NCBI GenBank assembly: GCA_050012075.1
Contig: JBEKHW010000006.1
Location: 1 to 59,507, forward strand
DNA: 59,507 nucleotides
DNA from: Candidatus Omnitrophota bacterium
GTDB lineage: Bacteria; Omnitrophota; Gorgyraeia; Gygaellales; Profunditerraquicolaceae
Direction: 5' to 3'
The position numbers were made by a program, and so were the translations under genes. Positions within the stretch are counted from its first letter, which is position 1. Each line of letters opens with the position of its first letter. This document shows, piece by piece, positions 10,293 to 53,496 of the stretch. The notes beneath the pieces were generated by a model. The model was not told the origin of the DNA. It searched no databases and was given only the letters and a program-made list of their open reading frames with translations.

Positions 10293-11235
10293 TCAAGCTC
10301 CCGACGATATCTTTAATATCATTTATTTTATTGCTGACAAGATAATCTTTTATGCCCGCGACAATTTCTACTGATACGGCGGGGTGAATGAAGTTCGCCG
10401 TTCCCACGCTTACAGCGCTTGCTCCGGCGATAATAAATTCCAGGGCGTTTGAAGTGTCCATTATACCACCCATACCGATAATAGGGATTTTTACTTTCTG
10501 ATAAACTTCCCAGACCATGCGCACCGCGATAGGCCTTATGCTCGGCCCGCTCAGTCCTGCGGTAACCGTAGAAATTTTCGGGGTTCTTCTTTTTACGTCT
10601 ATCCCCATACCCAACAATGTATTAACTAAACTTACGGCATCGCTACCTGCCTTTTCCGCAGACAGGGCAATTTCAGTAATATCCGTTACATTCGGGGATA
10701 ATTTTGTGATGATTGGCTTACCCGTATACTTGCGCACCATCTTTACCGTTTCGAAAGTAGCGGCTGCATCCTGCGAAATTAGGCGTGTGACTTTGTGACT
10801 TTGTGACTTTGTGACTTTTATATTGGGGCAGGAAATATTCAGCTCCAGCGCAGCGACGCCAGAAAGCCTGCCCAGTTTCCTGGAGAGCTCAATAAACTCT
10901 TCGGGGTCGCTCTCTGCAGAAATACTTACAATTATCGGCACGCCTATTTTTACCAAAAAAGGTAACTTTTTCTTTATGAATTCATCTATCCCCGGATTCT
11001 CCAGGCCTATGGAGTTTAGCATCCCCGACGGAGTTTCACAGGTGCGCGGCGGGGGATTACCTTGGCGCGGCTTCAAGGTAATGGTCTTGGTAACTATCGC
11101 GCCTAACTCTTTTAGGCGTATAAAACTACTGAACTCCTCGGCATAACCAAAGGTTCCCGAAGCAACCATAACCGGGTTTTGCAATCTGAGGCTTCCTATT
11201 TTAACAGAAAGTTTCGGCTGCATATTATTTCCCAA
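10279..11235 (-). CDS. pyrD: Dihydroorotate dehydrogenase 1B, catalytic subunit (alternative start 11223)
   Basis: NPVMVASGTFG, MLNSIGLENPG, ELNISCPN, KLSPNVTDI. Confidence 0.95.
   Translation of the reverse strand: MGNNMQPKLSVKIGSLRLQNPVMVASGTFGYAEEFSSFIRLKELGAIVTKTITLKPRQGNPPPRTCETPSGMLNSIGLENPGIDEFIKKKLPFLVKIGVPIIVSISAESDPEEFIELSRKLGRLSGVAALELNISCPNIKVTKSQSHKVTRLISQDAAATFETVKMVRKYTGKPIITKLSPNVTDITEIALSAEKAGSDAVSLVNTLLGMGIDVKRRTPKISTVTAGLSGPSIRPIAVRMVWEVYQKVKIPIIGMGGIMDTSNALEFIIAGASAVSVGTANFIHPAVSVEIVAGIKDYLVSNKINDIKDIVGSLNVKG
10787..10818 (-). repeat. (AAAGTCAC)x4 inside pyrD
   Basis: GTGACTTT x4 on the + strand; encodes [11 protein letters not shown]. Confidence 0.95.
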
Positions 11236-11584
11236 GGATCATATAAACTGCTATGGCTAATAGATACATTCCGAATATTTTCTTAAGCAGCGGGTCAGAG
11301 ATATGGTGCACAAATTGCGCGCCAAAAAGGCCTCCGATAAAAAAACCAAGGCAGACAAGCCCTGCAATCCCTAATTTTACATTTCCTGCCTGCCAGTAGC
11401 GCCAGGCAGCTAAAAGGCCGATAGGCGGAACCAGTATTGCCAGGGTTGTGCCTTGCGCCTGATGCTGGGTTAAACCAAACAGATACACCAGCGCAGGAAT
11501 AAGAATCGTCCCGCCTCCGATACCGAACAGCCCGCCGAATATTCCGGCTACTAACCCTAAAATTATATAAAATATCTGGCTCAT
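11225..11584 (-). CDS. Half-size TSUP (TauE/SafE) family membrane protein
   Basis: GLFGIGGGTILIP...HQAQGTTL; start MSQIFY has a GGAGG SD. Confidence 0.8.
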   Translation of the reverse strand: MSQIFYIILGLVAGIFGGLFGIGGGTILIPALVYLFGLTQHQAQGTTLAILVPPIGLLAAWRYWQAGNVKLGIAGLVCLGFFIGGLFGAQFVHHISDPLLKKIFGMYLLAIAVYMILGK

Positions 11585-11604
11585 AAACCCTCCCGCATAA
11601 ACGC

Positions 11605-12756
11605 TTAAAAACTCGGCTCTATGCACAAAACCTTATATTTCTTAAAATCCTTTAAGCCCCCCTGGATAAAACTCAGGTTCGTCAGGTATTTCATCTTGCA
11701 CCAAACCCAGAATTTATCCTTGGGCTCCATGCCAAAGTTCCATTTGACGTATTGATAGGCGAAGTAAGCTGCCGATAAAATGGTTATTAGGGTAAAAATC
11801 TTCATACCAATTCCGGCCAGCACAAAACTTAAAATCAATCCAATGACAGCAAGGGCTAGAAAAAAATGCATTAGATGAAAATTGCCCAGATAGGCAAAAC
11901 CCCTGAGTGGAAAAGGCAATATAAAAGAAGGGCCTCCCTTGATGAACTGCAATATAACTTCAAGCCCTTTCCTCTTGACATACTTATCAATTAAGGGCAG
12001 GTGCGCCTGTCCGTATGTCACCCATACTTTTCTTAACGCCTTTAGGTCCGCCCTGTGCATATGGTCGACTTTTGCCTTGGGAGCAAAATAAAATTTAAAC
12101 CCGGATCTTCTACATTCGTAGCTTAAATTCATATCCTCACCGGTAGGCCTTTCCCAGAATTTTAAATTGAGCTTATCCAGGGCAGCCTTTCTATACGCGA
12201 CATTGCAGGTGCCGAAAAAATACCCTTTGTGGCCGCCGATGTCAGAGGGTTTGGGGTCTCCCGGGAAATCCGGATAATACCCTTCTTTAATAAAACCGTA
12301 ACGGGGGGAAACCATGTTGAAACGGAAATGCTGGCACCAGGCCTCGACTAAATTATTCGGGTCAACCTTTAAGGTATAAACCTCTCCTCCCACAGCGGCG
12401 ATGCCAGGGTCATTGTCAAAATGTTTAAGTATCTCATTAATCCATTCCCGGCAGGGCGCGCAATCGGCGTCGGTGAAAAATAAGAAATCCCCCTTAACCA
12501 CCTCCAGGGCTTTATTACGCGCATATCCCGGAGAGGGGCAGTTGGGTATCTCCACGAGCTTTATAAAAGGGTACTTCTTTTGCCAATTCCTGATTATTGG
12601 AACGGTTTTATCGGTAGAGCCGCCGTCTGCGATAACCCACTCCCAGGCATTGTGGGGATAATCAACGTTCAGCAGATATTCAAATGTCCTTTCAATGGTG
12701 CGCTCAAAATTCTTTACCGGTATGATTATGGAAACAAAAGGTTTTTCGGACATCAT
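11605..12756 (-). CDS. GT2 glycosyltransferase with C-terminal TM helices
   Basis: SIIIPVKN, DGGSTD, DAD, GED motifs. Confidence 0.85.
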   Translation of the reverse strand: MMSEKPFVSIIIPVKNFERTIERTFEYLLNVDYPHNAWEWVIADGGSTDKTVPIIRNWQKKYPFIKLVEIPNCPSPGYARNKALEVVKGDFLFFTDADCAPCREWINEILKHFDNDPGIAAVGGEVYTLKVDPNNLVEAWCQHFRFNMVSPRYGFIKEGYYPDFPGDPKPSDIGGHKGYFFGTCNVAYRKAALDKLNLKFWERPTGEDMNLSYECRRSGFKFYFAPKAKVDHMHRADLKALRKVWVTYGQAHLPLIDKYVKRKGLEVILQFIKGGPSFILPFPLRGFAYLGNFHLMHFFLALAVIGLILSFVLAGIGMKIFTLITILSAAYFAYQYVKWNFGMEPKDKFWVWCKMKYLTNLSFIQGGLKDFKKYKVLCIEPSF

Positions 12757-12765
12757 CGTCCTCCC

Positions 12766-12826
12766 TTAAAATAAGCCATGCCTCTGGCGTTTATGGCTTA
12801 TTTTACTCCGCACTATGTGCGGAGCT
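12766..12826. repeat. Double-hairpin intergenic element, copy 1
   Basis: 57/61 identical to the reverse complement of 42832-42892. Confidence 0.9.
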
Positions 12827-12834
12827 AGGTTCAG

Positions 12835-13614
12835 CTATCTTTCCGTCCATATTATATCATCCGCAGCAAAAACCGGGCCGTCTTTACATACCCTCTTATA
12901 ACCATCCCTTGTATCTATAACACAACCAAGGCAGGCCCCTATGCCGCAGGCCATATGTTCTTCCAGGGAAAACTGCGCTGGAATATTGTTTTTCTTAGAA
13001 ATACGGGATACCTCTTTAAGCATAGGCCTTGGTCCGCAGGCGTATATAGTTGATGGTTCATAGTTCATGGTGGATAGTAAATAGTTTAATAATTCTGTAA
13101 TTTTACCCTTAAACCCTCTTGACCCATCGTCAGTTGCTATTTTAACATCGCAGCCAATGCTTTTAAACTCTTTTTCGCAAAGAGTCTGGCTTTTTGTTTT
13201 GGCGCCAAGAAGAACCGAAGGTTTACTATGAACCATTTTTTCTGCAAGAAAAACTAACGGCGCGACACCCATGCCTCCGGCAACAATAATTGCTTTCCCT
13301 TTTAATAAATTAAACCCGTTCCCGAGCGGGCCGATTACATCTAAATATTCCCCGGTTTTCTTTTGTGACAGGATTTTGGTGCCCCTGCCGACTATTTCAC
13401 AAAGGATATCAAAATTGCCTGCTTTAACCCGATGTATACCCAGGGGCCTGCGTAAAAACGGGCCATCCTCATTTACAACTTCTATTTCCACAAACTGTCC
13501 CGGCCGGGCAAAAGAAGCGATTTTACGGCTATCAATAGTCAACTTAAAATATTCTTTCCCTATTTTTTGTTTGCCTACAATATGACATTTTTCCTGAAAG
13601 ATTTTTTCTCTCAT
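12835..13614 (-). CDS. pyrK: Dihydroorotate dehydrogenase electron-transfer subunit
   Basis: PGQF, LRRP, GPLGNGF, GGMGVAP, MACGIGACLGC...CKDGPVF. Confidence 0.95.
   Translation of the reverse strand: MREKIFQEKCHIVGKQKIGKEYFKLTIDSRKIASFARPGQFVEIEVVNEDGPFLRRPLGIHRVKAGNFDILCEIVGRGTKILSQKKTGEYLDVIGPLGNGFNLLKGKAIIVAGGMGVAPLVFLAEKMVHSKPSVLLGAKTKSQTLCEKEFKSIGCDVKIATDDGSRGFKGKITELLNYLLSTMNYEPSTIYACGPRPMLKEVSRISKKNNIPAQFSLEEHMACGIGACLGCVIDTRDGYKRVCKDGPVFAADDIIWTER
13046..13086 (-). repeat. Heptamer tandem array inside pyrK
   Basis: AACTATT TACTATC CACCATG AACTATG AACCATC AACTAT on the sense strand; encodes NYLLSTMNYEPSTI. Confidence 0.8.
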
Positions 13615-14189
13615 TTCCCTAACAATGCCCAGATTTTAATTAAAAATACAAAAGCAGCTGCTGTCAAAAAAGAAGGGAGTTCGGGCTTAGCCCAGGATAG
13701 TTGAAATTTAATCCCGGAATCCAGGCGCATCAAGCTTCTTATCCCTGGGAAAAACCTTGGGGTATTTTTGCAGTAATCCCCAAATGAGCCCCCGAAAAAA
13801 TCGCGCAGCTTTTTTTCTTCAATCCTAATCTGCGGGATATAAATTGAAAGGTATATTATCAAAAAAATTAAGCTGCCCCACCACCATCTTAAGATTAGAA
13901 TGATTATCCCCAGGCCTACAAGAAGCGTGCCTAAATACATCGGGTTTCGTGTTAAAGCATACGGCCCTTTTGTAACAAGGGTTTTCCCGTCAGGGTTCAA
14001 CTGGGCCTTATAACCCCTTGCGGCCATCCTTAAAAAATAACCCGACAGGAATAAGGTCAGGCCTATCAGGTCAAGAATAATTTTGGCAATACTGCCATCC
14101 GGTCCTGGCAATAAATATTTGTGAAAAGCTGCCAGCATAACAACAGCTAAAAATATCAGGAACCCTTGGATTTTTATTCTTTTCTTCAT
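13611..14189 (-). CDS. ICMT/PEMT-family membrane methyltransferase
   Basis: LVTKGPYALTRNPMYLG, EEKKL...YCKNTPRF; TAATG coupling with mutM. Confidence 0.8.
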   Translation of the reverse strand: MKKRIKIQGFLIFLAVVMLAAFHKYLLPGPDGSIAKIILDLIGLTLFLSGYFLRMAARGYKAQLNPDGKTLVTKGPYALTRNPMYLGTLLVGLGIIILILRWWWGSLIFLIIYLSIYIPQIRIEEKKLRDFFGGSFGDYCKNTPRFFPGIRSLMRLDSGIKFQLSWAKPELPSFLTAAAFVFLIKIWALLGK

Positions 14190-14989
14190 TATTTCTGGCA
14201 ACGCGGGCAGAAATAAGTTCCCCTACCGCCTAAGCTAATTCTTTTAACCGGCATCTTGCAGATCGGGCAGGGCTTACCTTCCCGGCCATACACTTTATGA
14301 TGCTTTGCATAATCGCCCTGCTCTCCTGACAGTTGAACATATTGGTCTATCGAAGAACCCTTATATTCAATCGCTTCTTTCAGGGTTTCAATGAGCTCTT
14401 TAAAAAGCAGCTCTTTTTCTTTATCACTTAAAGACACCGCCGGCCGTGCGGGATCAATTTTTGCGCGAAAAAGTACCTCGGCAGCATACAGATTGCCCAC
14501 GCCGGAAATAAATGTCTGGTCCATTAAAAGCGGCTTTATCTTGGTTTTCTTCTTATCCAGCATCTCCTTAAATCTTCCCGCGTCAATATCAAAGGGTTCG
14601 GGGCCAAGCCCCTTAATGAATTTCAAATCGCGCCAATCATTGATTAAGCGCAATTCAGCAAATAAGCGGCGGTCATTAAAATCCATCTGTTTGCCATCGG
14701 AAAGCTTAAAAGTAACTCTGCTTGCTTTGCCGTCTCCGGGATAAATTAATTGCCCGGTCATCTTAAGGTGAATTGCCAGGGCCTTTCCGTTAGAAAATTC
14801 CATAATTAAAAGCTTGGCTTTTCTTAAAATATTTTTGACTATCGCGCCCTTTAATCCTTTAACAAAATCTTCCTTTTCCGGCTCACGGATGACTTTGGGG
14901 TTATGAACGATTACATCGACAATCTTCTTGCCCAAAATCGCCTTTTCTAATTCTCTTTTTATTGTTTCTACTTCGGGCAGTTCCGGCAT
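14189..14989 (-). CDS. mutM: Formamidopyrimidine-DNA glycosylase
   Basis: MPELPEVE, HLKMTG, GVGNLYAAE, C-terminal Zn finger. Confidence 0.97.
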   Translation of the reverse strand: MPELPEVETIKRELEKAILGKKIVDVIVHNPKVIREPEKEDFVKGLKGAIVKNILRKAKLLIMEFSNGKALAIHLKMTGQLIYPGDGKASRVTFKLSDGKQMDFNDRRLFAELRLINDWRDLKFIKGLGPEPFDIDAGRFKEMLDKKKTKIKPLLMDQTFISGVGNLYAAEVLFRAKIDPARPAVSLSDKEKELLFKELIETLKEAIEYKGSSIDQYVQLSGEQGDYAKHHKVYGREGKPCPICKMPVKRISLGGRGTYFCPRCQK

Positions 14990-15385
14990 TTAACACTCCA
15001 GGGCTTTTACCCACACTTCTCTTACGCGTGGCCCGTCTGCTTCACATAAATATATTCCCTGCCAGGTTCCTAAGGCGAGCTGTCCTTCCTCTACAAATAT
15101 AGTAAGTGACGAACCCAGAAGGGAAGATTTCACGTGGCTATCTGCATTACCCTCTGCATGCGCATATCCGGCATTCTCCGGGATTAATTTGTTTAAGGTG
15201 TTTATTATATCCTTCCTTACTGAAGGGTCTGCGTTTTCGTTAATGGTAAGGCCTGCGGTAGTGTGGGGGGAAAAGATAAAACAGGCGCCTTCTTTGATTT
15301 TTGTTTTGCTGACTACATCTTGCACCTGGGATGTAATATCTATCAACTCTGCGCGCTTGCCTGTCTTTATTGTTATTTTCTCCAT
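14990..15385 (-). CDS. yjbQ: YjbQ/UPF0047 family protein
   Basis: [32 protein letters not shown]. Confidence 0.92.
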
Positions 15386-18300
15386 CTCTTGACTTGTGAC
15401 TTTGTGACTTTGTGACTTTGTGACTTTTTATGATACTGCTGCAAGGGCTTTACTTCCAGCCTGTGCTTAATCAATGCCTCAACTCCCTTTACACAAGCTT
15501 CTGCCCCCGGCAAAGTAGTCACTACCGGCACGCCGAAAGCGATTGCCGTAGAACGTATTTTTATCTCATCCTGGCGCGGGATTTTCCCGGAGGTGGTATT
15601 AATAATTAAATTCACTTTATTCGTCCGGATTAAATCCAGCAGGTTTGGCTTACCCTCGCTTACCCGCTGGATGGTGCATACAGAAATCTTATTCCCCTGC
15701 AAAAACCGGGCAGTGCCCACGGTAGAAATAATCTCAAACCCCAGGCCCAATAATTTCCTGGCAACCGCCGCAATAACCGGATTTTTATCCTTATCTTTGA
15801 CACTTAAAAAAACCGCGCCCTTGACAGGGAGATTCTGGTACGCTGCCAGCTGGCTCTTGGCATAGGCCTTGGCAAAATCCATATCTATACCCATTACCTC
15901 ACCCGTCGACTTCATCTCCGGGCCCAGGGTTATATCTATGCCGGGGAATTTAACAAAAGGCAGCACCGATTCCTTCACCGCGATATGCCGGGGGATAATT
16001 TCTTTTGTAAACCCGAGGTCCTTCAGTTTTTTCCCCGCCATTACCTTTGCTGCTAATTTTGCGAGGGGCACTCCGATAGCCTTAGAAACAAAAGGAACGG
16101 TGCGGCTTGCCCGGGGGTTAACCTCTAATATATATACGGTGCCATTCTTAACCGCGTACTGCACATTCATAAGGCCTACGACACCAAGCTCGCGCGCGAG
16201 GGAATAGGTATATTGCCGGATCTTATTGATAGTCCCCTGGGGCAGCGTATGCGCAGGTATTACCATTGCTGCGTCTCCTGAGTGCACACCCGCTTCTTCG
16301 ATATGTTCTAATATTCCGCCGATAACAAAGGTCTTGCCGTCTGCGACCATATCTACGTCAACCTCAATCGCATCCTCGATAAATCTATCCACCAGGACAG
16401 GCCGTTCCGGAGAAGCCCATACCGCATGCTGCATATAGTATTCTAGCGTCTTTTCATCATAGACTATCTCCATCGCCCTTCCGCCCAACACATATGAAGG
16501 CCTGACCAAAACCGGATAACCTATCTTTTTAGCTACTGCTTTTGCCTCCTGTACGGTCACCGCTGTTCCGTTAACAGGTTGCATTAATCCCAGTTTCTCC
16601 ACTAATTCCGAGAATCGTTTTCTGTCCTCTGCGCGGTCAATGGCATCGGGAGAAGTGCCGATAATATTGACCCCCGCTTTTTCAAGAGGGACCGCCAGAT
16701 TAAGGGGCGTCTGGCCGCCAAGCTGCACTATCACGCCGTCCGGCTTTTCCTTATCAATAATATTTAAGACATCCTCTTTGGTCAACGGTTCAAAATACAA
16801 TTTATCCGAGGTATCGTAATCAGTGGAGACGGTTTCGGGGTTGGAATTTACCATTATCGTCTCATATCCCAACTCTTTAAGCGCGAAAGACGCGTGGACG
16901 CAGCAGTAATCAAATTCTATTCCCTGGCCGATACGATTAGGCCCGCCTCCGAGTATCATAATTTTTTTCTTTTTGCTCTGCCTTGTCTCATTGTCCGTTG
17001 TTTTTACTGCCCCGGCGGTAAAAGGCGTCTCATATGTAGAATAATAGTATGGCGTGTAGGCCTCGAATTCGGCAGCACAGGTATCCACCAGCTTATATAC
17101 CGCCTCAATCCCGCAGGACTTACGTAAAGACCTTATCTTGTCTTCATCGCTATTTAATGCTTTGGCAATCTGGCTGTCGCTAAAACCAAGCTGTTTTGCC
17201 TGTAAAATATTCTTCTGGCTAATCTTTCCTTCAAACTCAATTATTTCTTTTAAGTTCTCTAAAAACCACCTGTCAATCCTAGTTAACGCGTACAGCTTAT
17301 CTATCGGATAATTCTCCTTCAGGGCCTCGTACAGGTAAAATAGCCGTTCCGCATTAGGGGTCTTTAGTTTTCTCTCGAGCTCTTCTTTGTCTTTATATTT
17401 TATCCCGTCGAGGCCGTTACGTTTTATCTCAAGGCCACGGATACCTTTTTGCAGCGCCTCTTTAAAGGTGCGCCCGATAGCCATTACCTCTCCTACGGAT
17501 TTCATCTGTATGGTCAGGGAGTTCTCTGCTGTGGGAAATTTTTCAAAGGCAAAACGCGGGATTTTTACCACGCAGTAATCTATTGTCGGCTCAAAAGAAG
17601 CGGGCGTTTCCCTGGTAATATCATTGGGTATTTCATCTAAAGTGTAACCTATCGCTAATTTGGCCGCTATTTTGGCTATCGGAAAACCCGTGGCCTTGGA
17701 AGCAAGGGCCGAAGAACGCGATACCCGCGGGTTCATTTCAATAATGACCATCCTGCCGTTGTCCGGGTTTATGGCAAACTGTATATTTGAACCTCCGGTT
17801 TCAACTCCGATCTCTCTTATGCAGGCAATGGCGGCGTCGCGCATAAGCTGATATTCCCTGTCGGTCAAGGTCTGCGCAGGCGCAACTGTAATGGAATCCC
17901 CTGTATGCACACCCATCGGGTCAAAGTTTTCGATGGAACAGATAATTACTACATTGTCTTTCTTATCCCGCATCACCTCGAGCTCAAACTCCTTCCAGCC
18001 GATAACCGACTCTTCGATGAGAATCTCTGAAATCATGCTGGATTCAAGTCCGCGCAAAGCAATTGCCTCAAATTCTTCCTTGTTATAAGCAGCCCCGCCT
18101 CCGGTTCCGCCTAAAGTAAAAGAGGGCCGGATAATCACGGGAAACCCTATCCGCTGGGCAACCTTACGCGCTTCTTTAATATTGTAGGCGAGGCCGCTTC
18201 TGGGCAGGTCAAGGCCAATCTTTTGCATCGCCTTTTTAAATAGCCTGCGGTCTTCGGCCTTTTTAATTGCCTTTCTGTCTGCGCCGATCATCTGCACCTT

Positions 18301-18633
18301 GTATTTATCAAGGGTACCTCTTTCGGCAAGCTGCATACTTACATTAAGGCCGGTCTGTCCACCTAGGGTAGGCAGAAGCGCGTCCGGGCGCTCTTTAGCA
18401 ATTATCTTTTCTAATATCTCGGGGGTAATCGGTTCAATATAGGTTCTATACGCCATCTCCGGGTCAGTCATAATGGTCGCGGGGTTGGAATTAACCAGGA
18501 TAACTTTAAAACCCTCTTCTTTCAGGGCCTTACAAGCCTGGGTGCCGGAATAATCAAACTCGCAGGCCTGGCCTATAATAATAGGGCCAGAGCCAATGAT
18601 TAAAATCTTTTTTATGTCTTTACGTTTAGGCAT
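15373..18633 (-). CDS. carB: Carbamoyl-phosphate synthase large subunit
   Basis: MPKRKDI...[17 protein letters not shown]; two ATP-grasp domains; MGS domain. Confidence 0.98.
15396..15427 (-). repeat. (AAAGTCAC)x4 at the carB 3' end
   Basis: GTGACTTT x4 on the + strand; encodes [11 protein letters not shown]. Confidence 0.95.
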
Positions 18634-31028: not shown

Positions 31029-31085
31029 TAGTTCATGATTCATGGTTCATGGTTGATAGTACTATGAACTATCCACTATGAACTA
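31029..31085. repeat. Head-to-head heptamer arrays forming a hairpin in the gyrB-gyrA spacer
   Basis: TAGTTCATGATTCATGGTTCATGGTTGATAGT|ACTATGAACTATCCACTATGAACTA. Confidence 0.85.
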
Positions 31086-31086
31086 G

Positions 31087-33612
<2,526 letters not shown>

Positions 33613-41997: not shown

Positions 41998-42623
41998 GCA
42001 AAACGCACGACGCAAAACGCACGGCGCAAAACGCAAAGGGTTTAATCTTTGTTATATCCGGGCCATCGGGCTCAGGAAAGACCACTCTGCGGGACAGGCT
42101 TTTAGAGGATAAAATATTGCGAAAGAGATTGGCTAAGCCGATCTCTTTTACCACCCGGCCCAAAAGGTCCAAAGAGCAAAACGGCCGGGATTATTATTTT
42201 ATTAACAGGGTCCAGTTTGAAGCGAAGAAACGCGCTAAGAAAATTCTTGAATGGACCAGGTATTTAGGATATTATTACGCCACCCCGAAAGATTACGTGC
42301 AACACCAACTTCGCCGGGGCAGGGATGTCGTGCTCTGCACGGACTTAAAGGGGGTAGCTAATATAAAAAGATTATACCCCTTTAATAATGTAAGTATTTT
42401 TGTCAGGCCCCCATCCTTAGGGGCATTGGAAAAAAGGATAACAGGGCGTTGCCACAAAACAGGCAAGAAGGAAATAAAGAAACGCATCGGCCTGGCAGAG
42501 AAAGAATTGCGCAAGGCCTCAAGCTGTGATTATCAAGTTTTGAACAAAAGGCTTTCCTATGCGCTGGCCAGGTTAAAAGGCATCGTTGTTAAACATACAA
42601 CGCAAAAGAATAGGCGAGGTTAA
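41994..42623 (+). CDS. gmk: Guanylate kinase
   Basis: SGPSGSGKTT, TTRPKR, GRDYYF. Confidence 0.93.
   Translation: MSKTHDAKRTAQNAKGLIFVISGPSGSGKTTLRDRLLEDKILRKRLAKPISFTTRPKRSKEQNGRDYYFINRVQFEAKKRAKKILEWTRYLGYYYATPKDYVQHQLRRGRDVVLCTDLKGVANIKRLYPFNNVSIFVRPPSLGALEKRITGRCHKTGKKEIKKRIGLAEKELRKASSCDYQVLNKRLSYALARLKGIVVKHTTQKNRRG
42000..42034 (+). repeat. Heptamer array in the gmk N-terminus
   Basis: AAAACGC ACGACGC AAAACGC ACGGCGC AAAACGC. Confidence 0.8.
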
Positions 42624-43962: not shown

Positions 43963-43979
43963 TTACAATCAATAGCTTC

Positions 43980-44112: not shown

Positions 44113-44128
44113 GAAACAGAAGGTGTTT

Positions 44129-45856: not shown

Positions 45857-45896
45857 TAAGTTCAGGCAATCCTTCAAAGACAGGGAGGTGGTCACC

Positions 45897-46403: not shown

Positions 46404-46434
46404 TATATAAAAAAAGAACAGGAGCTAAGGTCAA

Positions 46435-46635: not shown

Positions 46636-46647
46636 AAAGGAGTATTT

Positions 46648-46998: not shown

Positions 46999-47007
46999 GA
47001 CAAGTTC

Positions 47008-47652: not shown

Positions 47653-47655
47653 AAG

Positions 47656-48318
47656 ATGTATATAATTATCGTCGGCGCAGGTAAAATAGGTTATTTTCTG
47701 GCAAAGCGGCTTTCAGCAGGGCAACACACGGTTATCGTGGTAGATAAGGATAAAAATCTCTGCGAGGAGCTGGCAAAAGAGCTAGAAGTGCTGGTTATCC
47801 ACGGCGACGGGTGCGACCCGAAGATCCTTGAGGAAGCCGGCATAGGCCGCGCTGATGTGTTGGCAGCGGTCACAGGAGAAGATGAAGACAACCTGATTAT
47901 CTGCCAGCTAGCCAAGGAGAAATTCAATGTCCAGCGCACTGTAGGGCGGGTGAATAATCCCAGCAACGAGCATACTTTCGCAGAACTCGGTATAGATGTC
48001 CCGGTAGACTCCACAAAGATTATTGCCAAAATCATTGAAGAGGAAGTTTCCTTTTCTGACTTTGTAAACCTGATGAGTTTCAAGCGCGGGAAACTGGCGA
48101 TTGTGCGCGTAGACCTTCCCGCGGATTCCCCGGTAATAAATAAGGCGATACAGGAGATCTCGTTCCCTGAGAATTCTGTGTTGGTTTCTATACTGCGGCA
48201 AGAAGAGGTGATTATCCCTAAAGGAAACACCGTCCTTAAGCCGGGCGATGACATCATTGCCCTGACTCTTATTGGCAATGAACCCCAGTTATTAAATTTG
48301 TTGGTCGGTAAACTCTGA
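47656..48318 (+). CDS. trkA: TrkA-family K+ uptake regulatory (RCK) subunit 2
   Basis: IIVGAGKIG, GDG, DEDNL, IPKGNTVL. Confidence 0.9.
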   Translation: MYIIIVGAGKIGYFLAKRLSAGQHTVIVVDKDKNLCEELAKELEVLVIHGDGCDPKILEEAGIGRADVLAAVTGEDEDNLIICQLAKEKFNVQRTVGRVNNPSNEHTFAELGIDVPVDSTKIIAKIIEEEVSFSDFVNLMSFKRGKLAIVRVDLPADSPVINKAIQEISFPENSVLVSILRQEEVIIPKGNTVLKPGDDIIALTLIGNEPQLLNLLVGKL

Positions 48319-48434
48319 TGAAAACAAGAATCCTCCTTTGCGCAGCATTGGGCATTTCTTCGGAAATCATTTATGCCCTAGGTATAGCCCTCTGCGCATT
48401 TTTAATTTGCCTCGCATTATCCTTTAAAATATGA
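48318..48434 (+). CDS. 38-aa hydrophobic membrane peptide; not in the ORF track
   Basis: MKTRILLCAALGISSEIIYALGIALCAFLICLALSFKI; TGATG overlap with trkA2 and ATGA overlap with trkH. Confidence 0.7.
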   Translation: MKTRILLCAALGISSEIIYALGIALCAFLICLALSFKI

Positions 48435-49936
48435 TCCTTAAGCCCCGCCTCAAAGAAGCCAAAGCAATAGGGTATTATCTTGGTAAAATCATTTTCGGCC
48501 TAAGCCTTACCATGCTAATCCCCATTTTATTCGGCCTAGCGACAAGAGAGGTTAATCCCGCATTGGACTTTTTTGTGGGGATGGAGATATCCCTGCTCTT
48601 CGGTTTAATCCTGACAAAGCTATGTTATACTGAGCAGGACTTGAACTGGATGCAGGGGATGATTGTAGTTTCTCTTTCCTGGATAGCGGCGATGGTGCTT
48701 GGGGCGATACCGCTTTATCTTAGCAGGCACTACGGTTCGTTTCTGGACACCTGTTTTGAAACCATGTCCGGTTTTACTACTACAGGACTTACCTTGGTGC
48801 AGGATTTGGACCACCTGTCATATACGCATAATTTATGGCGGCATTTAGGCCCGTTTATAGGGGGTCAGGGGATTGCCATCGTCGCGCTTTCATTTTTTGT
48901 GAAAGGCACCTCCGGCGCATTTAAAATATACGTAGGCGAGGCGCGCGAAGAAAAATTGTTGCCCAATGTGGTCCACACCTCCAGATTTATCTGGGCAATA
49001 AGCATCGCTTATTTAATTTTAGGCACACTTGCCTTGGGGGCAGTCGGTATCCAGATTGGCATGAGGCCGGGGAATTCTTTTTTTCACGGTGCCTGCGTGT
49101 TTATGGCGGGTTTTGACACCGCGGGCTTTGCACCGCAATCGCAAAATATACTTTATTACCATAGCCTGCTTTTTGAGGTGGTAACAATCGTAATAATGAT
49201 TTTAGGCGCGCTTAATTTTAACTTCCATTATCAGGTTTGGGCCGGGAACCGCAAAGAGGCGCTTAAAAACATAGAGACGCGGGCATTTTTTATCAGCGTA
49301 ACGCTCTTATTTTTTATTACCGCCATCGGTTTAAGCAAATTTGGTGTATATCAGAAGGCGATAGTGCTATTCCGTAAGGGGTTTTTCCAGCTCATATCAG
49401 GGCATACCACTACCGGCTACATGACCGTATACAGCCAACAATTTATCAATGAGTGGGGAGACCTGGCTTTGTTCGCTTTAATCTGCGCTATGGCGCTAGG
49501 CGGATGTATCTGTTCTACCGCAGGCGGTATTAAGATGCTGCGCATCGGCATTATTTTTAAAGCACTTTTAGAGGATATAAAAAGGATAATTTTGCCTGAG
49601 CAGGCTATTGTGGTGCAGAAGTTTCATCATATAAAAGAAATATTCCTGGAAGACAAACAGGTCAGGGGAGCACTCCTTATTACCATATCCTACATTGTTC
49701 TTTATGGCTTGGGCGCGGCCATTGGTATCTTCTTTGGATATCCATTCCTTAATTCCTTGTTTGAGTCTACTTCTGCTGCGGCAAATGTCGGGCTTTCCTG
49801 CGGCGTAACTTCGCCTGGCATGCCTATCGCGCTAAAGATTACCTATATAATCCAAATGTGGGCGGGTAGGCTTGAGTTTATCTCCATATTTACTTTAATC
49901 GGCTTTTTCGTAGCTGCGGTAAAAGGAAAAAAATAA
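48431..49936 (+). CDS. trkH: TrkH-family K+ channel subunit
   Basis: Four pore loops SGFTTTG/AGFDTAG/SGHTTTG/SAAANVG; STAGGIK; GRLE. Confidence 0.93.
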   Translation: MILKPRLKEAKAIGYYLGKIIFGLSLTMLIPILFGLATREVNPALDFFVGMEISLLFGLILTKLCYTEQDLNWMQGMIVVSLSWIAAMVLGAIPLYLSRHYGSFLDTCFETMSGFTTTGLTLVQDLDHLSYTHNLWRHLGPFIGGQGIAIVALSFFVKGTSGAFKIYVGEAREEKLLPNVVHTSRFIWAISIAYLILGTLALGAVGIQIGMRPGNSFFHGACVFMAGFDTAGFAPQSQNILYYHSLLFEVVTIVIMILGALNFNFHYQVWAGNRKEALKNIETRAFFISVTLLFFITAIGLSKFGVYQKAIVLFRKGFFQLISGHTTTGYMTVYSQQFINEWGDLALFALICAMALGGCICSTAGGIKMLRIGIIFKALLEDIKRIILPEQAIVVQKFHHIKEIFLEDKQVRGALLITISYIVLYGLGAAIGIFFGYPFLNSLFESTSAAANVGLSCGVTSPGMPIALKITYIIQMWAGRLEFISIFTLIGFFVAAVKGKK

Positions 49937-50475
49937 TGAGAAAAGTTCATGGTTTCCTCCGGAAGCGGATCAGCCTACGGCTGACATTGTTCATAGTTAA
50001 TAGTATAGTGTTTTTTTTGGCGCTATGCCTTATGCGTTACGCTACAAGCCCTTGTTACGCGCAGACCATCTCCAGCACGGATTTGATTAATCATGCACGG
50101 GAATACGATGGGAAAACGGTGGTCTATACAGGAGAAGTTATTGGTGATATAATGAAACGTGGAGAGTTTGCCTGGTTAAATGTCAATGACGGCTTAAACG
50201 CGATAGGTATCTGGACGAGCTTATCCCAGATTAAAGATTTGACGGCTACGGGTGGTTATAAAAGAATCGGAGATGAAGTAGAGGTTACAGGCGTATTTCA
50301 TCGCGCTTGCCCTGAGCATGGAGGAGATCTGGATATTCATGCTCAAGCGCTGCGTAAGCTTGCTGCTGGAAGACGGTTGCAGGAACGCCTGAATATTGAT
50401 GAAATACGTTTTGTAATTATTTTATTGGGGATATTAGGAGCGGTATGGATATTAACGCTATTAGGCAAGAAGTAG
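49936..50475 (+). CDS. Exported OB-fold-like protein with C-terminal TM anchor
   Basis: Signal-like N-terminus, YTGEVIGD...GDEVEVTGVF, C-terminal hydrophobic helix; TAATG-coupled to trkH. Confidence 0.65.
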   Translation: MRKVHGFLRKRISLRLTLFIVNSIVFFLALCLMRYATSPCYAQTISSTDLINHAREYDGKTVVYTGEVIGDIMKRGEFAWLNVNDGLNAIGIWTSLSQIKDLTATGGYKRIGDEVEVTGVFHRACPEHGGDLDIHAQALRKLAAGRRLQERLNIDEIRFVIILLGILGAVWILTLLGKK

Positions 50476-51458
50476 AACTGGAAGCAAAAGGGATAAATTC
50501 CCCCGAGTCGCTGGAGGGTTTTCGGAATAAATACCTGTCCAGAAAAGGCATACTTGCCCAATTAACCGGTGCTATACCGGGATTGCCGCAACAGGAGCGT
50601 GCCGGTTTCGGCAGGGAAGTCAATATCCTGAAGAGCCAGATATTATCCATAATTGAAGAGAGGCAAAAGGTTTTCGGCGCTAGATCTGGGAGGAGTTCTT
50701 CGGAAGGTATTGATATAGGTATGCCTGGTATTGCCCAGCCGCTCGGCCATCTGCACCCCATCACGCAAATTACGAACGAGATAAGCGATATATTTATACG
50801 CATGGGTTTTTCGGTCGTAGAGGGGCCGGAGGTAGAGACAGAATACAATAATTTTACGGGTTTAAATATACCCCTGGACCATCCTTCCCGGGATGCCTTT
50901 GATACTTTTTATCTTAAAGGTTATAATAAGCTGCTATTGCGCAGCCACACTTCTCCTGTCCAGGTGCGCGCAATGAAATCCCGCAAACCGCCTCTTGCAA
51001 TAATAGTGCCTGGCCGCGTATATAGGCCCGATGCAGTGGATGCAAGCCACTTATTTATGTTCCATCAGATAGAGGGATTCATGGTGGATGAAAATATAAG
51101 GTTCTCGGATTTAAAGGGGATCCTCGAGTTATTTGCAAAAGCAGTCTTCGGCAGCGAAATTAAGATGCGCTTCCGGCCGCATTTTTTCCCTTTTACAGAG
51201 CCATCGGCAGAAGTGGATATATCCTGCATAATCTGCAAAGGAAGAGGCTGTTCTGTGTGCGGCAGGAAAGGTTGGCTTGAGATTCTGGGTTCAGGTATGA
51301 TTCACCCCAATGTTTTTAAAAATGTCGGCTACGACTCCAAGAAATATACCGGCTTTGCCTTTGGGATGGGGATAGAGAGAATCGCGATGCTTAAATACGG
51401 CATAAATGATATCAGGCTGTTTTTCGAAAACGACTTAAGATTCCTGCAACAATTCTAA
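50445..51458 (+). CDS. pheS: Phenylalanine-tRNA ligase alpha subunit
   Basis: HPSRDAFDTFY, RSHTSPVQ, FPFTEPS, FAFGMGIER. Confidence 0.98.
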   Translation: MDINAIRQEVELEAKGINSPESLEGFRNKYLSRKGILAQLTGAIPGLPQQERAGFGREVNILKSQILSIIEERQKVFGARSGRSSSEGIDIGMPGIAQPLGHLHPITQITNEISDIFIRMGFSVVEGPEVETEYNNFTGLNIPLDHPSRDAFDTFYLKGYNKLLLRSHTSPVQVRAMKSRKPPLAIIVPGRVYRPDAVDASHLFMFHQIEGFMVDENIRFSDLKGILELFAKAVFGSEIKMRFRPHFFPFTEPSAEVDISCIICKGRGCSVCGRKGWLEILGSGMIHPNVFKNVGYDSKKYTGFAFGMGIERIAMLKYGINDIRLFFENDLRFLQQF

Positions 51459-51462
51459 AACT

Positions 51463-53496
51463 ATGAGGCTAACTTATAACTGGTTAAAAGATTTTGTAGA
51501 GATTAAGCTAGAGCCAGAACTACTTGCAGATAAGCTGACGATGGCAGGCATTGAAGTGAAGGCCCTGGAAGAAGTAGGGGGAGACACTGTTTTTGAAATC
51601 GAGATCACCTCTAACCGGCCGGACCTTTTAAGTGTTATAGGTATTGCCAGGGAGATAGCTGCAATCACAGGGAAGAAGTTGATTCTTCCAAAGTCACAAA
51701 GTCACAAAGTCACAAAGTCACAAGCTCATAAAGGGTTCTCTGTAAGCATAGAAAATAAAAAGGATTGCCCGCTGTATACTGCCAAGATTATAGAGGGGGT
51801 AAAAGTCGCTCCTTCTCCTGCCTGGCTCAAAAATAGATTAGAGCTTATCGGCTGCCGCAGTATAAACAATATCGTCGATATTACAAACTATATCCTCTTT
51901 ACTTACGGCGAGCCATTGCATGCTTTTGATTTGGATAGATTGTCTCCTGGGGGTATTTTTGTGCGTAGGGCTCGGCAGGGTGAGCGTATTGTAACCATTG
52001 ACGCAGCAGAGCGTTCTCTCGATAAAGATATACTGGTTATCGCAGATAATCAGAAAACCGTGGCCTTAGCAGGCATAATGGGAGGCAAGGATAGCGAAGT
52101 ATCGCCTTATACAAAGAATATACTTTTAGAGGCAGCAATATTTAGCCCTGCTTTAACAAGGAAGGCGCGTCAGAAGCTGGGCATGCAGACAGATTCCTCT
52201 TACCGTTTTGAAAGAGGGATGAGCCCGCATACAGCGCAAAATGCGTCTATTGCGGCAACAGATTTAATTTTGCAGTTGGCCGGCGGCAAACTCACGCTGG
52301 CAAAAAGCGCAGGCGCTCTTAAGGCCAAACCTAAGAGCGTGCGGGTAGAGCTCGCCTCTGCGCGCCGAATATTGGGTGCTAGCATTACCGCGAAAGAGAC
52401 AAAGAAAATCCTCGTCAACTTAGGCCTGAACGTAAAAGCGTCGGGTAAAGATGCCTTTCGCGCAGGTATCCCCTCCTTCCGCAGTGATATATCTTACGAA
52501 ATAGATATAGTTGAGGAGATAGCCAGAATCCGCGGCTACGATTCAATGCCGACAACTTTACCCAAAATAACGCCGTGGCCGCCTTCTTTAGAGAAAAGGG
52601 ATTTAGTCGGCCTGGTAAAGCAGGCGCTTGTATCATTGGGGCTGAATGAAGTCATTACCTACAGCCTGATTAACCGCGCTTTACTGGAACCCTTTGCCGA
52701 TGAGAAAGATCCCCATCTTGTGGAGATACAGAATCCCTTAAGCAGTGAACAGGAAGTTTTAAGGGCAAGTTTATTGCCCAGCCTCATTAAATGCGTCGCC
52801 CACAACCACAATCAGAAACAAGAATATGTTAACATCTTTGAAGTTGCCAATGTTTTTACAGAAGATAAGGGCCAGGTTAAAGAGGAGCTGCATTTAGCCA
52901 TTGCCTTAAGCGGGATAAGGCCTCTGTTTATTGAAGAAACAGTGATAAAGGATAAGGCGGGGTTACTCCATTTAAAAGGTATTTGTGAAGCGCTTTTTGG
53001 GAAACTAGGGATAAACAAATACGAATTTCAGGATAGCGGTAATGGCAGGGTGAATATATCGGTTGCCGGAGAAAACACGGGGCTTCTTATCAGGGTGGCA
53101 AGCAGGATATCGGAGCGTTTCGATATCAAGAATCAGGATGTGGTAGCTGCGGAGCTATCTTTAGAGAAGGCATTCGTGCAAAGCAATTTTTCCAGGAAGT
53201 TCTCTAGCCTGCCTAGGTTTCCCGCGATAAGCAGGGATATAAGCTTTATTTTGAAAGATGAAATCCCTATACGGGAGGTCTTGGCAGCATTGGAAGAAAA
53301 AGGCAAGCCCCTTTTAGCCGGGGCGTGTGTCACCGACTATTATAAAGGTAAGCAAATACCGCAGGGGTGCCGCGGCATAACCGTTTCCTGCGTATATCGT
53401 TTGGAAGAGCGTACCCTGACAGAGGAAGAGGTAAATCCTGTTCACTCGGCGCTGCGCAGTCTTTTAGAGGCGCATTTTCAGGCAAAGATACGTTAG
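51463..53496 (+). CDS. pheT: Phenylalanine-tRNA ligase beta subunit, short form without the B2 OB domain
   Basis: ITSNRPDLLS, GEPLHAFD, RFERG, RDISF FDX-ACB; 677 aa. Confidence 0.95.
   Translation: MRLTYNWLKDFVEIKLEPELLADKLTMAGIEVKALEEVGGDTVFEIEITSNRPDLLSVIGIAREIAAITGKKLILPKSQSHKVTKSQAHKGFSVSIENKKDCPLYTAKIIEGVKVAPSPAWLKNRLELIGCRSINNIVDITNYILFTYGEPLHAFDLDRLSPGGIFVRRARQGERIVTIDAAERSLDKDILVIADNQKTVALAGIMGGKDSEVSPYTKNILLEAAIFSPALTRKARQKLGMQTDSSYRFERGMSPHTAQNASIAATDLILQLAGGKLTLAKSAGALKAKPKSVRVELASARRILGASITAKETKKILVNLGLNVKASGKDAFRAGIPSFRSDISYEIDIVEEIARIRGYDSMPTTLPKITPWPPSLEKRDLVGLVKQALVSLGLNEVITYSLINRALLEPFADEKDPHLVEIQNPLSSEQEVLRASLLPSLIKCVAHNHNQKQEYVNIFEVANVFTEDKGQVKEELHLAIALSGIRPLFIEETVIKDKAGLLHLKGICEALFGKLGINKYEFQDSGNGRVNISVAGENTGLLIRVASRISERFDIKNQDVVAAELSLEKAFVQSNFSRKFSSLPRFPAISRDISFILKDEIPIREVLAALEEKGKPLLAGACVTDYYKGKQIPQGCRGITVSCVYRLEERTLTEEEVNPVHSALRSLLEAHFQAKIR
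51690..51721 (+). repeat. (AAAGTCAC)x4 inside pheT
   Basis: Four exact copies; encodes [11 protein letters not shown]. Confidence 0.95.

Follow-up and report, generated by a model that had tools for sequence, protein, structure and literature searches.

The window, i.e. the whole stretch of 59,507 nt that was analysed, contains three perfect (AAAGTCAC)x4 arrays, at 10787-10818 (minus strand), 15396-15427 (minus strand) and 51690-51721 (plus strand). An earlier note had reported the same four-copy octamer array at three loci, and it was found at exactly these positions. The arrays, their host genes and a further repeat of the same class are:

10279..11235, minus strand: pyrD, class 1B-type dihydroorotate dehydrogenase, host gene (NCBIfam NF005574, 386.8 bits)
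10786..10818, minus strand: pyrD array, (AAAGTCAC)x4.1 with four GTCAC cores, encodes PyrD residues about 141-151
15373..18633, minus strand: carB, carbamoyl-phosphate synthase large subunit, host gene (NCBIfam NF003671, 1716.7 bits)
15394..15427, minus strand: carB array with four GTCAC cores at the 3' end of the gene, CarB residues 1070-1081 of 1086
31029..31090, unstranded: intergenic inverted pair of heptamer arrays (GTTCATG-type and ACTATGA-type) forming a hairpin, same class
51463..53496, plus strand: pheT, phenylalanine-tRNA ligase beta subunit, host gene (NCBIfam TIGR00472, 594.7 bits)
51689..51723, plus strand: pheT array with four GTCAC cores, encodes PheT residues about 77-87

The two-unit pattern AAAGTCACAAAGTCAC was searched across the window and gave nine matches, which correspond to the three arrays. 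None of 100 dinucleotide-preserving shuffles contained a match and the chance expectation was 0. Maximal perfect periodicity extends over 10786-10818 (33 nt), 15394-15427 (34 nt) and 51689-51723 (35 nt). All three arrays have the sense orientation of their host gene (pyrD and carB on the minus strand, pheT on the plus strand) and their translations are permutations of KVTKSQSH, as the earlier note had predicted for any frame. The RNA of the three arrays is structure-free (0 to -0.7 kcal/mol), with 195-200 of 200 shuffles folding at least as well. For the intergenic hairpin at 31029-31090, a fold of -23.2 kcal/mol (z -4.97) was obtained on the plus strand. Rfam at gathering thresholds returned eight tRNAs and one 6S RNA for the whole window, and no match on the arrays.

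In an alignment to DHOD B of L. lactis (1EP1), the pyrD array is located in the loop right after the NISCPN motif. An alignment of orthologues for empty sites, as proposed earlier, showed a net insertion of 8 aa (24 nt) in PyrD relative to five of five orthologues; loops of purM and lysA are also empty in some orthologues. The empty pyrD site of the congeneric genome G001 reads AAA AGG ACA AAG, which resembles about 1.5 units, and the gain is exactly three units. The pheT array occupies a variable linker, with AREIAAITG on one side and KDCPLYT on the other. Two of the arrays lie within their genes as first described, but the carB copy lies beyond the conserved C-terminus: the profile match ends at residue 1068, before the array-encoded residues 1070-1081, and CarB of relatives ends at ..YHK, YHSQ, YHS or other tails. 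The carB array sits in the short junction before the ATG of the next gene (15385) and is therefore best described as a read-through C-terminal tail and not as an internal insert.

The source genome (G000, 1.72 Mb) contains 26 arrays with at least three GTCAC cores at a period of 8 nt: 21 with four cores, five with three and none with five or more. This count by copy number, orientation and genic position, which the earlier note had called for, placed 19 of the 21 four-core arrays in sense within ORFs of at least 168 aa, nearly all encoding core enzymes. Hosts are gltB, hisH, pyrD, carB, pheT, dapF, lysA, folC (two arrays), leuC, aroA, aroK, purL, purM, purD, cmk, lpxK, a heptosyltransferase gene, mnmA and others, and the arrays lie anywhere from 1% to 98% of the host gene length. 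The host frame stays open across all 21 four-core arrays. No antisense ORF crosses any of the 26 arrays, which bears out the claim that only the sense orientation is compatible with coding; the reverse complement has a TGA in every frame, hence the sense-only orientation. Perfect AAAGTCAC arrays of 29-35 nt, with nearly the same boundaries, occur 14 times in unrelated genes and use the three frames 5, 7 and 2 times. Since all three frames are in use, the underlying process works on the DNA and not on the reading frame. With TRF, the AAAGTCAC family comprised 29 arrays, 18 genic (18/18 in sense) and 11 in spacers. In about ten GTCAC elements, 3-4 cores are joined through a short loop to cores in inverted orientation. 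A second, 33-nt module was seen nested in arrays at one fixed phase (GTCA/C).

The phenomenon, first described for three genes, is confirmed in pyrD, carB and pheT but is not limited to them, as the GTCAC octamers are one family within a larger population. TRF detected 194 non-overlapping period-7/8 arrays in the source genome, with a length mode of 32 nt and a copy-number peak at 4-5 for heptamers and at 4 for octamers. ORFs of at least 150 aa contained 78 of the 194 arrays, compared to 88% of 3000 random windows; spacers between genes are filled by such arrays too, often as inverted pairs. Where a family has stops in both orientations, its arrays are mostly found between genes, and stop-free families are genic; genic copies of AAAACGC (6/6) and AACGCAC (4/4) are all in sense. 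Of 123 arrays between two crude genes, only two lie in spacers of divergent genes, whereas about 15 were expected from the 12% length share of these spacers. Giant genes (>2000 aa; 7.3% of crude coding DNA) contain none of 69 genic arrays, with about five expected, which is odd for random insertion.

Variant GTCACNNN arrays were found in 9 of 41 genomes of relatives. In these and in contigs of Planctomycetota, the GTCAC core is constant and the 3-nt spacer varies (AAA, AAG, CAA, CAG, CAC, AAT). The 21 arrays fetched from relatives all have exactly four cores and an open frame, and 20 of the 21 are in sense in long ORFs; their hosts include rnfC, trmD, thrC, topA, pheS, lnt, leuS, lpxK, waaA, ispD, purH, purL and fumA. 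The hosts of the source genome had looked rich in biosynthesis, but a regulon of anabolic genes is opposed by topA, leuS, pheS, lnt, rnfC and fumA in the relatives, which share no common pathway. The same 32-mer as in the AAAGTCAC array occurs in trmD and a ushA-like gene of another genus. The congeneric G001, in contrast, has no GTCACNNN x4 array, though the same genes are kept, and a 188-kb sample of it contained only six weak period-7/8 arrays, compared to an expectation of about 21 from the array density of the source genome. Array content is thus burst-like between the two congeners.

At orthologous sites, arrays recur far above control segments drawn from the same genes. A period-7/8 array is present in the pheT linker of 11 of 30 orthologues (controls 1/284), and clear arrays are present at the sites in hisH (2/12; controls 0/171), purM (3/15; 0/172) and lysA (3/14; 0/241), the source genome being included in each case. 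Among relatives, the loops of pheT, purM, lysA, hisH, lpxK and purL are either empty or re-used by differing, lineage-specific arrays. Thus, hisH of G008 has a GTCTACR heptamer array where the source genome has its own, and purM and lysA show empty, array-bearing and decayed states at one loop. The lpxK arrays of the source genome (GTCACAAG x4) and of G002 (GTCACCAA x4) occupy one and the same position, with 54% identity between the two proteins; in purL (G000, G022) and queC (G000, G002), too, the two genomes have the array site in common. Between G000 and G005, 30 of 32 nt of the pheT array match, compared to 65% identity of the flanking protein. Net gains relative to the shortest orthologues are +24 nt in pyrD, +21 nt in hisH (+7 aa relative to 27-aa orthologues), +21 nt in purM and about +15 nt in lysA. 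A general rule of one unit becoming four (+24 nt) fits pyrD and is contradicted by the other three genes; as gains vary from +15 to +24 nt, a single fixed inserted piece is not established. Likewise, the idea that the pheT unit of each relative represents a genome-wide family holds for G008, where AGACCAC occurs at about 11 loci, but fails for G020 (CAAGACA x4) and G004 (GTATCAA x4), whose perfect pheT arrays have units found nowhere else in these genomes with up to one mismatch.

The arrays are probably (rough probability 0.6) copies of a short, non-autonomous repeat module at the DNA level, on which selection acts as a filter and whose translation gives a tolerated peptide. With a total length of about 32-35 nt, the module would have four GTCAC cores, one every 8 nt, and would be one family among the genome-wide ~32-nt hepta- and octanucleotide arrays, which appear to form a large part of the spacers of co-directional genes, often as hairpin-forming inverted pairs. 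On the DNA, copies would be newly made or refreshed in two ways, through tandem amplification in place and through copying from one array or array-like site to another. Within genes, selection would act on orientation, as a stop-free sequence is needed (GTCAC is open in three frames, GTGAC gives a TGA in every frame within 24 nt), on length, as the net change must equal a multiple of three, and on the site, which should be a tolerant loop, linker or tail. Judging from the open frames, an array inside a gene would be translated as a hydrophilic insert of 8-11 residues, reading the KVTKSQSH cycle in any frame; this peptide is presumably neutral and switching presumably absent.

Four other explanations were weighed against this module. 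That the arrays are artefacts of assembly or chimera formation is hardly credible. Logan contigs of the probable source run do break at the pyrD and carB arrays (10813/10794 and 15421/15402), as expected for a repeat close to the assembler word length. Yet every gene carries its array in frame and in sense, independently assembled relatives carry arrays at orthologous sites, and AAAGTCAC arrays occur with other flanks in contigs of other studies, at 119 metagenome loci and in named MAGs. In one contig of another study, about 91% alike, 26 gap letters bridge the end of carB, possibly owing to a shorter array or none. Among 118 untruncated perfect AAAGTCAC runs in metagenome contigs, the number of cores was 3 (63 runs), 4 (40), 5 (8), 6 (2), 8 (3), 9 (1) or 12 (1). 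Such variable run length, together with the frame shift caused by an 8-nt unit, would suit contingency loci in which gain or loss of a unit switches pyrD, pheT and other genes. Phase variation is nevertheless highly improbable, as the host genes encode core enzymes and tRNA ligases and are present in single copy, their frame is open at all 21 four-core arrays of the source genome and at 21/21 in relatives, and length differences between paralogues are multiples of three units (6 and 18 units in paralogous ORFs of G030, a difference of 12). Separate origin of each array in a lysine-rich loop of low complexity, through local slippage during replication or through tandem duplication, with an unusually slippage-prone unit accounting for identical copies, we consider very unlikely. 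The earlier note had judged independent slippage insufficient, which agrees with 14 perfect arrays of the same 8-mer with nearly the same boundaries in unrelated genes and with the identical 32-mer in non-orthologous genes of another genus; moreover, essential genes would stay in frame only if one unit became four in a single step, and gains of +15 and +21 nt do not correspond to a whole number of octamers. That judgement was too strict in one respect, since local amplification also occurs: the pheT units of G020 and G004 are unique to that locus, paralogues differ in length (2 and 4 cores in the amtB-glnB spacers; the G030 ORFs) and the empty pyrD site of G001 already resembles the unit, with a gain of exactly three.

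The arrays might also be functional cis-elements. On the DNA, a protein would bind to a platform of four GTCAC motifs at even spacing; on the mRNA, an unstructured, single-stranded (AAAGUCAC)4 tract would be bound. Many housekeeping genes would thereby be joined in one circuit of regulation or processing, with S1, Csp, CsrA or IHF/HU-type binders as candidates from the literature. The constant core with its variable spacer in relatives and Planctomycetota contigs, the core number of strictly four in the source genome and its relatives, the conservation of array DNA far beyond its flanks (pheT of G000 and G005), the structure-free RNA and the depletion between divergent genes all fit. The same depletion is reported in the available part of Rehm et al. 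(PMC4692102), and regulator binding has been proposed for like arrays in the accessible text of Aklujkar et al. (PMC2700814) and MacGregor (PMC4679880). Against this stand the sister species G001, which keeps the same genes without such arrays, the same loops being empty or carrying unrelated units in other genera, hosts with no shared pathway and with arrays at any position along the gene, and the search results, with no Rfam match and no binding protein identified. On balance, a cis-regulatory role is rather unlikely.

For the repeat module, passive insertion and filtering alone leaves three observations unaccounted for: the core number of exactly four, the constancy of the GTCAC core next to a variable 3-nt spacer across genera and even phyla, and the far better agreement between G000 and G005 in the pheT array than in the flanking protein. 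A dedicated trans-acting process that writes arrays, measuring ~32 nt with a 7- or 8-nt unit and copying a short lineage-specific template, is a speculative idea of low probability. It could repeatedly re-write the same loops and spacers, and would account for the strict four cores, the constant core with free spacer, the identical dispersed copies, the lpxK switch (AAG x4 versus CAA x4) and the fixed phase of the 33-nt module. If true, dedicated array writing would be an undescribed DNA-writing activity common to many bacterial phyla.

No mobilising enzyme or master copy of the arrays was found in the source genome. The small gene family flanked by arrays that the earlier note had envisaged did not appear around the GIY-YIG genes or the Y1 transposase gene. 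For a GIY-YIG/Ssn-type nuclease, four PF01541 matches were obtained (C16, C39, C1, C27), and the surrounding stretches inspected contained no GTCAC/GTGAC array. Two of these four matches seem to stem from a single larger gene that is split over overlapping contig ends. Y1_Tnp occurs once (C1:105254-105729); this gene, a RAYT candidate, is flanked by the unrelated inverted repeat TAGGGACGGTTCT/AGAACCGTCCCTA and not by arrays. Regarding MITEs, solo arrays are without inverted ends, no duplication was evident at the filled and empty pyrD site and no parent IS was seen.

This order of Omnitrophota offers an unusually clean natural experiment, with empty, filled, decayed and re-filled loops in universal enzymes across about 40 genomes, array-rich and array-poor species within one genus and one copy in an active-site loop of the assayable PyrD. 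Thus, it is testable whether the arrays are signal or passenger, how they are copied and why there are four units. In practice, array inserts lead to distorted gene models and to breaks in short-read assemblies, and give unrelated proteins identical peptides.

Among known repeats, Rickettsia palindromic elements are palindromes of roughly 100-150 bp, selfish-looking repeats which are kept in frame in housekeeping genes as tolerated peptide inserts. The analogy to these elements drawn in the earlier note holds for behaviour, i.e. tolerated, in-frame persistence in conserved protein genes, but not for structure, as the arrays are direct repeats of 33-35 nt without a fold of their own and are not palindromic. 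REPs are imperfect, extragenic palindromes, and REP/BIME are associated with RAYT transposases. Similar to the arrays, they have a module of ~30-35 nt, inverted pairs in co-directional spacers and species-specific sequence at conserved positions, and are targets for other elements; in contrast, each arm in the source genome is a tandem array, solo arrays are direct repeats and no RAYT gene flanked by them was found. The open literature (subscription journals not covered) yielded no paper tying Omnitrophota to such repeats and none on the GTCAC octamer family.

Closer likenesses are found among hepta- and octanucleotide tandem arrays, which, with about four units preferred, have been on record in several phyla since the cyanobacterial STRR; the STRR comparison of the earlier note was apt. 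For Geobacter metallireducens, the available text of Aklujkar et al. (2009, PMC2700814) describes 49 copies of four-heptanucleotide GGGACCG elements (Gmet_H4##) and paired four-octanucleotide GTTGCTYN elements with the pairs on opposite strands, interpreted as regulator-binding or RNA elements. As there, the source genome has four tandem units of 7 or 8 nt in dozens of copies, dispersed within and between genes and with opposite-strand pairs. ISGme8/9 lie at a fixed distance from the Geobacter arrays, as does the 33-nt core in the source genome, but the Geobacter units are different and GC-rich, in a different phylum. TAACTGA heptamer direct repeats of Beggiatoaceae, cyanobacteria and Bacteroidetes, with 2-6 copies, are patchily distributed across phyla according to the accessible part of MacGregor (2015, PMC4679880). 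In one orientation the repeat carries a stop in every frame; such copies overlap the upstream stop codon and immediately precede the next start. Copies in the opposite orientation are read through in ORFs as a repeat peptide. Tandem units, orientation-dependent stops, read-through copies and patchy spread are thus common to TAACTGA repeats and the arrays. In that same part of the paper, however, most ORF copies belong to hypothetical proteins or lie at protein ends, and the TAACTGA copy number is not fixed at four; the source genome has its arrays also in internal loops of core enzymes, including the active-site loop of PyrD. A further likeness is to the GGGNATC-type heptamer arrays of Xanthomonas and Nostoc and to the cyanobacterial STRR heptamers (Rehm et al. 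2015, PMC4692102); what sets them apart, as far as the available portion goes, cannot apply to AAAGTCAC, since it is without G-tracts. By analogy with Geobacter, Beggiatoaceae and Xanthomonas/Nostoc, the arrays of the source genome appear to belong to a known kind of bacterial repeat.

The two-unit pattern AAAGTCACAAAGTCAC matched the window nine times, and the matches fell into three arrays of the octamer AAAGTCAC. The arrays and their host ORFs (NCBIfam names) are as follows:

10787-10818, minus strand, pyrD array (AAAGTCACAAAGTCAC pattern matches)
10279-11235, minus strand, ORF named PyrD
15396-15427, minus strand, carB array (AAAGTCACAAAGTCAC pattern matches)
15373-18633, minus strand, ORF named CarB
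51690-51721, plus strand, pheT array (AAAGTCACAAAGTCAC pattern matches)
51463-53496, plus strand, ORF named PheT

Tandem Repeats Finder reported 100%, 96% and 100% matches for the pyrD, carB and pheT arrays, respectively, with 4.1-4.9 copies. No AAAGTCACAAAGTCAC match occurred in 100 dinucleotide-preserving shuffles of the window; the arrays described from the sequence in an earlier note are real. In the frames of their hosts, they would translate into permutations of KVTKSQSH. That coding is possible in one orientation only was likewise borne out: GTGACTTT, the reverse complement of AAAGTCAC, contains TGA in all frames within 24 nt, and no open antisense frame was found across any array of the GTCAC family (a constant GTCAC core followed by a 3-nt spacer) in the whole genome. 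As RNA, the three octamer arrays were structure-free upon folding and no Rfam family covered them. Directly downstream of pheT, at 53568-53722, Rfam RF00013 identified a 6S RNA gene (70.9 bits).

All three arrays had been placed within genes, and for carB this placement needs a correction. The carB array comprises residues 1070-1081 of 1086, whereas the CarB profile match stops at residue 1068; relatives end in ..YHK, ..YHSQ, ..YHS or other short tails, and the ATG of the following gene lies 10 nt past the array. The carB copy is thus a junction array, which would be read through as a tail.

The earlier note described the octamer in three genes; counting across the whole Candidatus Omnitrophota assembly (G000; 1,723,986 bases in 46 contigs, the window being contig C6) revealed a genome-wide family. 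AAAGTCAC-periodic stretches of ≥ 12 nt numbered 48 (15 of 29-35 nt, seven of 19-22 nt, the others ≤ 17 nt); none in G000 exceeded 35 nt. Stop-to-stop ORFs of 168-1527 aa contain 14 perfect AAAGTCAC arrays in sense orientation, distributed over the three frames as 5, 7 and 2. With the family defined as at least three GTCAC cores at an 8-nt period and any 3-nt spacer, 26 arrays were obtained in G000, of which 21 have exactly four cores and the other five have three, four being the maximum. Homogeneous variants are GTCACAAG x4, GTCACCAC x4 and GTCACCAA x4. The arrays are hosted by gltB, hisH, pyrD, carB, pheT, dapF, lysA, folC (two arrays), leuC, aroA, aroK, purL, purM, purD, cmk, lpxK, mnmA, and genes for a heptosyltransferase, a QueG-like protein, an AmmeMemoRadiSam B/A fusion and one unnamed membrane protein. 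On contig C1 (89900-93500), two adjoining ORFs that resemble, by eye, ammonium-transporter and PII genes are duplicated in tandem; the spacers are 79% identical and carry four versus two GTCAC cores, a 15-nt two-unit duplication.

Three architectures were distinguished in G000. Solo homogeneous arrays lie inside genes. In about ten palindromic elements of ~75 nt, mostly at gene ends, a short and often GTAAAATCTTT-like loop separates three or four mixed GTCACnnn units from the inverted ones. In seven composites, a 33-nt GC-rich hairpin-like piece, GTGCGNAGCGAAGCGAAGCCTCCCCGGAGGGGR, splits the GTCAC array at precisely one point, after GTCA and before C (contig:positions in G000):

C9:22703-22757, composite
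C12:37867-37914, composite
C12:38848-38880, composite
C12:39562-39608, composite
C29:134-200, composite
C37:745-811, composite
C43:2071-2134, composite

The piece is on the stop-free (sense) strand of the array in 7/7 composites, and taking it out leaves a continuous array of about four cores. Judged by eye from the flank peptides, the hosts are folC, valS (three copies), a prmC-like gene, folP and queC, of which a family search confirmed folC only. The variable N of GTGCGNAGCGAAGCGAAGCCTCCCCGGAGGGGR avoids TAG in one frame, and a metagenome contig (L401) carries a shorter tandem version of the piece.

The GTCAC arrays belong to a more extensive population of hepta- and octanucleotide arrays. 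The Tandem Repeats Finder scan of all repeats, which covered one whole genome (G000), gave 770 rows, in which period 7 (207 rows, copy-number peak at 4-5) and period 8 (106 rows, peak at 4) predominate. Non-overlapping period-7/8 arrays of ≥ 3.3 copies numbered 194, and 32 nt was their most frequent length; the largest families are AACTATG (68), AAAGTCAC (29) and AACCATG (23). Only 78 of the 194 lie inside ORFs of ≥ 150 aa, compared with 88% of 3000 random 32-nt windows; intergenic positions prevail in families with stops both ways and genic positions in stop-free families. According to crude ORF calls, 69 arrays are genic, 117, four and two are in co-directional, convergent and divergent spacers (82%, 6% and 12% of total spacer length, respectively), and two are at contig ends. 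None of the 69 genic arrays is in a gene of > 2000 aa, such genes representing 7.3% of coding DNA by the same calls. Among AACTATG-type arrays in co-directional spacers, 33/53 start -19 to +5 nt from the stop codon of the preceding gene, and ~35-45 nt further on there is an inverted second arm. The CATAGTT/AACCATG heptamer families (91 arrays) build spacers between co-directional genes, for instance at window positions 9505-9531, 13046-13086 and 31029-31090; the arms of the last differ, and its hairpin has -23.2 kcal/mol on the plus strand versus -14.9 on the other. A mixed heptamer array, GCAAAAC/GCACGAC, is found at window 41998-42037; the AAAACGC family, which includes it, is genic in 6/6 G000 copies, in the stop-free orientation each time.

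Alignment of orthologues, the check proposed for empty sites, revealed such sites in pyrD (e.g. in the congeneric relative G001) and purM (relatives G009, G003, G026 and G029). PyrD of G000 has eight additional residues (24 nt) at the array compared to 5/5 orthologues, and the empty allele of G001, AAA AGG ACA AAG, already resembles one and a half units. In an alignment to L. lactis DHOD B (1EP1), the insert directly follows the NISCPN motif, and its loop adjoins the catalytic cysteine. The pheT site is a variable linker of 41-53 residues in 30/30 orthologues; a clear period-7/8 array was present in 11 of the 30 (including G000) versus 1/284 control segments from these genes. The unit depends on the lineage: AARGTCAC (G005), CAAGACA (G020), GTATCAA (G004), AGACCAC (G008), GTTTCAA-like (G022) and CGCTAWN (G027), and the G035 linker holds a complete in-frame hairpin of two heptamer arms. 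AGACCAC is a genome-wide family of ~11 loci in G008; the units of G020 and G004 were not found elsewhere in their own genomes. HisH of G000 has 7 aa more than the 27-aa orthologues, and a GTCTACR array occupies the same spot in G008. In purM, arrays with other units, CACATTA (G002), AACTTGCR (G004) and AACGCTA-like (G027), occur, and further orthologues have non-repetitive inserts of similar length in this loop. In lysA, AGGTYGCA x4 of G001 stands at the place of AAGTCACA x4 of G000; these units are related and differ in concert. LpxK carries GTCACAAG x4 in G000 and GTCACCAA x4 in G002 at an identical position, the proteins being 54% identical. The purL site is common to G000 and G022, and the queC site to G000 (composite) and G002 (array). 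At the latter locus (L253), the ORF starts as QueC (residues 5-133), followed by ~290 residues that match intein-containing proteins; queC of G002 may therefore contain an intein.

The exact 24-mer was found in two of the 41 genomes searched, G000 and G002, which belong to different genera. GTCACNNN x4 occurred in nine of the 41 (G030, 28; G000, 21; G002, 16; G005, 3; G022, G023 and G039, 2 each; G018 and G037, 1 each), and a reversed control pattern gave no match in any. No GTCACNNN x4 was found in the congeneric G001, of which a 188-kb sample contained six weak period-7/8 arrays versus ~21 expected at G000 density. Four cores, no more and no fewer, were counted in each of 21 arrays taken for a close look from G002, G005, G022 and G023, and 20 of these arrays are in sense orientation within long ORFs. 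Their hosts are rnfC, trmD, a heptosyltransferase gene, thrC, queC, topA (two contigs with identical flanks, possibly one gene), pheS, lnt (two contigs), leuS, an ushA-like gene, lpxK, vorB, waaA, ispD, comEB, purH, purL and fumA.

Four cores are no absolute limit, because two paralogous large ORFs of G030 carry 18 (L403:3371-3511) and 6 (L404:2662-2706) GTCAC-type units at the same position, a difference of 12 units and thus a multiple of three, and metagenome runs reach 12 cores. Among the matches listed, 118 perfect AAAGTCAC runs in metagenome contigs were complete, with 3, 4, 5, 6, 8, 9 and 12 cores in 63, 40, 8, 2, 3, 1 and 1 runs. A conserved hairpin, CCCCGACGCTTCGGTCGGGG, lies beside both G030 arrays. 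Again among the matches listed, GTCACNNN arrays occur in species genomes of many phyla, GTCACCCT/CCTT arrays in Chloroflexota and Planctomycetota, and GTCACAAR arrays in three MAGs titled Omnitrophota and in Planctomycetota contigs. In freshwater metagenome contigs, TTACCACGRA recurs in front of three AAAGTCAC units, after which the sequence becomes unrelated; this junction seems to belong to another element with the same octamer at its end (among the matches listed: loci L285, L288, L302, L310, L312, L313, L320, L334, L342, L350 and L355).

Judged from the sequences, two processes are visible. Local tandem amplification is shown by units unique to one site (pheT of G020 and G004) and by paralogous spacers with two versus four cores, as well as the 6 versus 18 units in G030. 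Spread or homogenisation between loci is shown by three observations: unrelated genes share identical 32-mers, another genus carries the array module in genes that are not orthologous, and units at orthologous sites differ in concert. The earlier proposal of dispersal instead of independent slippage agrees with the identical 32-mers; local amplification is seen too. No mobiliser, such as the proposed small gene family flanked by arrays, was found in the surroundings of GIY-YIG genes or at the flanks of the Y1 transposase gene of G000. The latter, a single IS200/RAYT-like gene (C1:105254-105729), has inverted-repeat flanks (TAGGGACGGTTCT / AGAACCGTCCCTA) unrelated to the arrays. Selection accounts for the rest of the pattern in the earlier note: the sense-only orientation, given the stops in reverse, as well as the open frames and the placement in loops, linkers and tails. 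Array length is ~32 nt for 7-nt and 8-nt units alike, the GTCAC core is constant and its spacer free, and the same loops are re-used across lineages. Taking amplification, spread and selection together, the arrays are probably a DNA repeat module of the non-autonomous sort, whose translation product would be a tolerated passenger.

A literature search, with subscription journals outside its range, returned no paper on such arrays in Omnitrophota. The reading of GGGNATC-type heptamers by Rehm et al. 2015 (PMC4692102) cannot hold for AAAGTCAC, which is without G-tracts. For Geobacter metallireducens, Aklujkar et al. 2009 (PMC2700814) report GGGACCG heptamers, four in tandem, at 49 places within and between genes; GTTGCTYN octamers, likewise in fours, form pairs of sites on opposite strands, and IS elements stand at a fixed distance from some of these. 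TAACTGA repeats, as described by MacGregor 2015 (PMC4679880), overlap upstream stop codons in one orientation and are read through as peptide, mainly at protein ends, in the other. From this likeness to published arrays, the Omnitrophota octamer arrays would join an already known kind of repeat, alongside the Geobacter, TAACTGA and Xanthomonas/Nostoc types.
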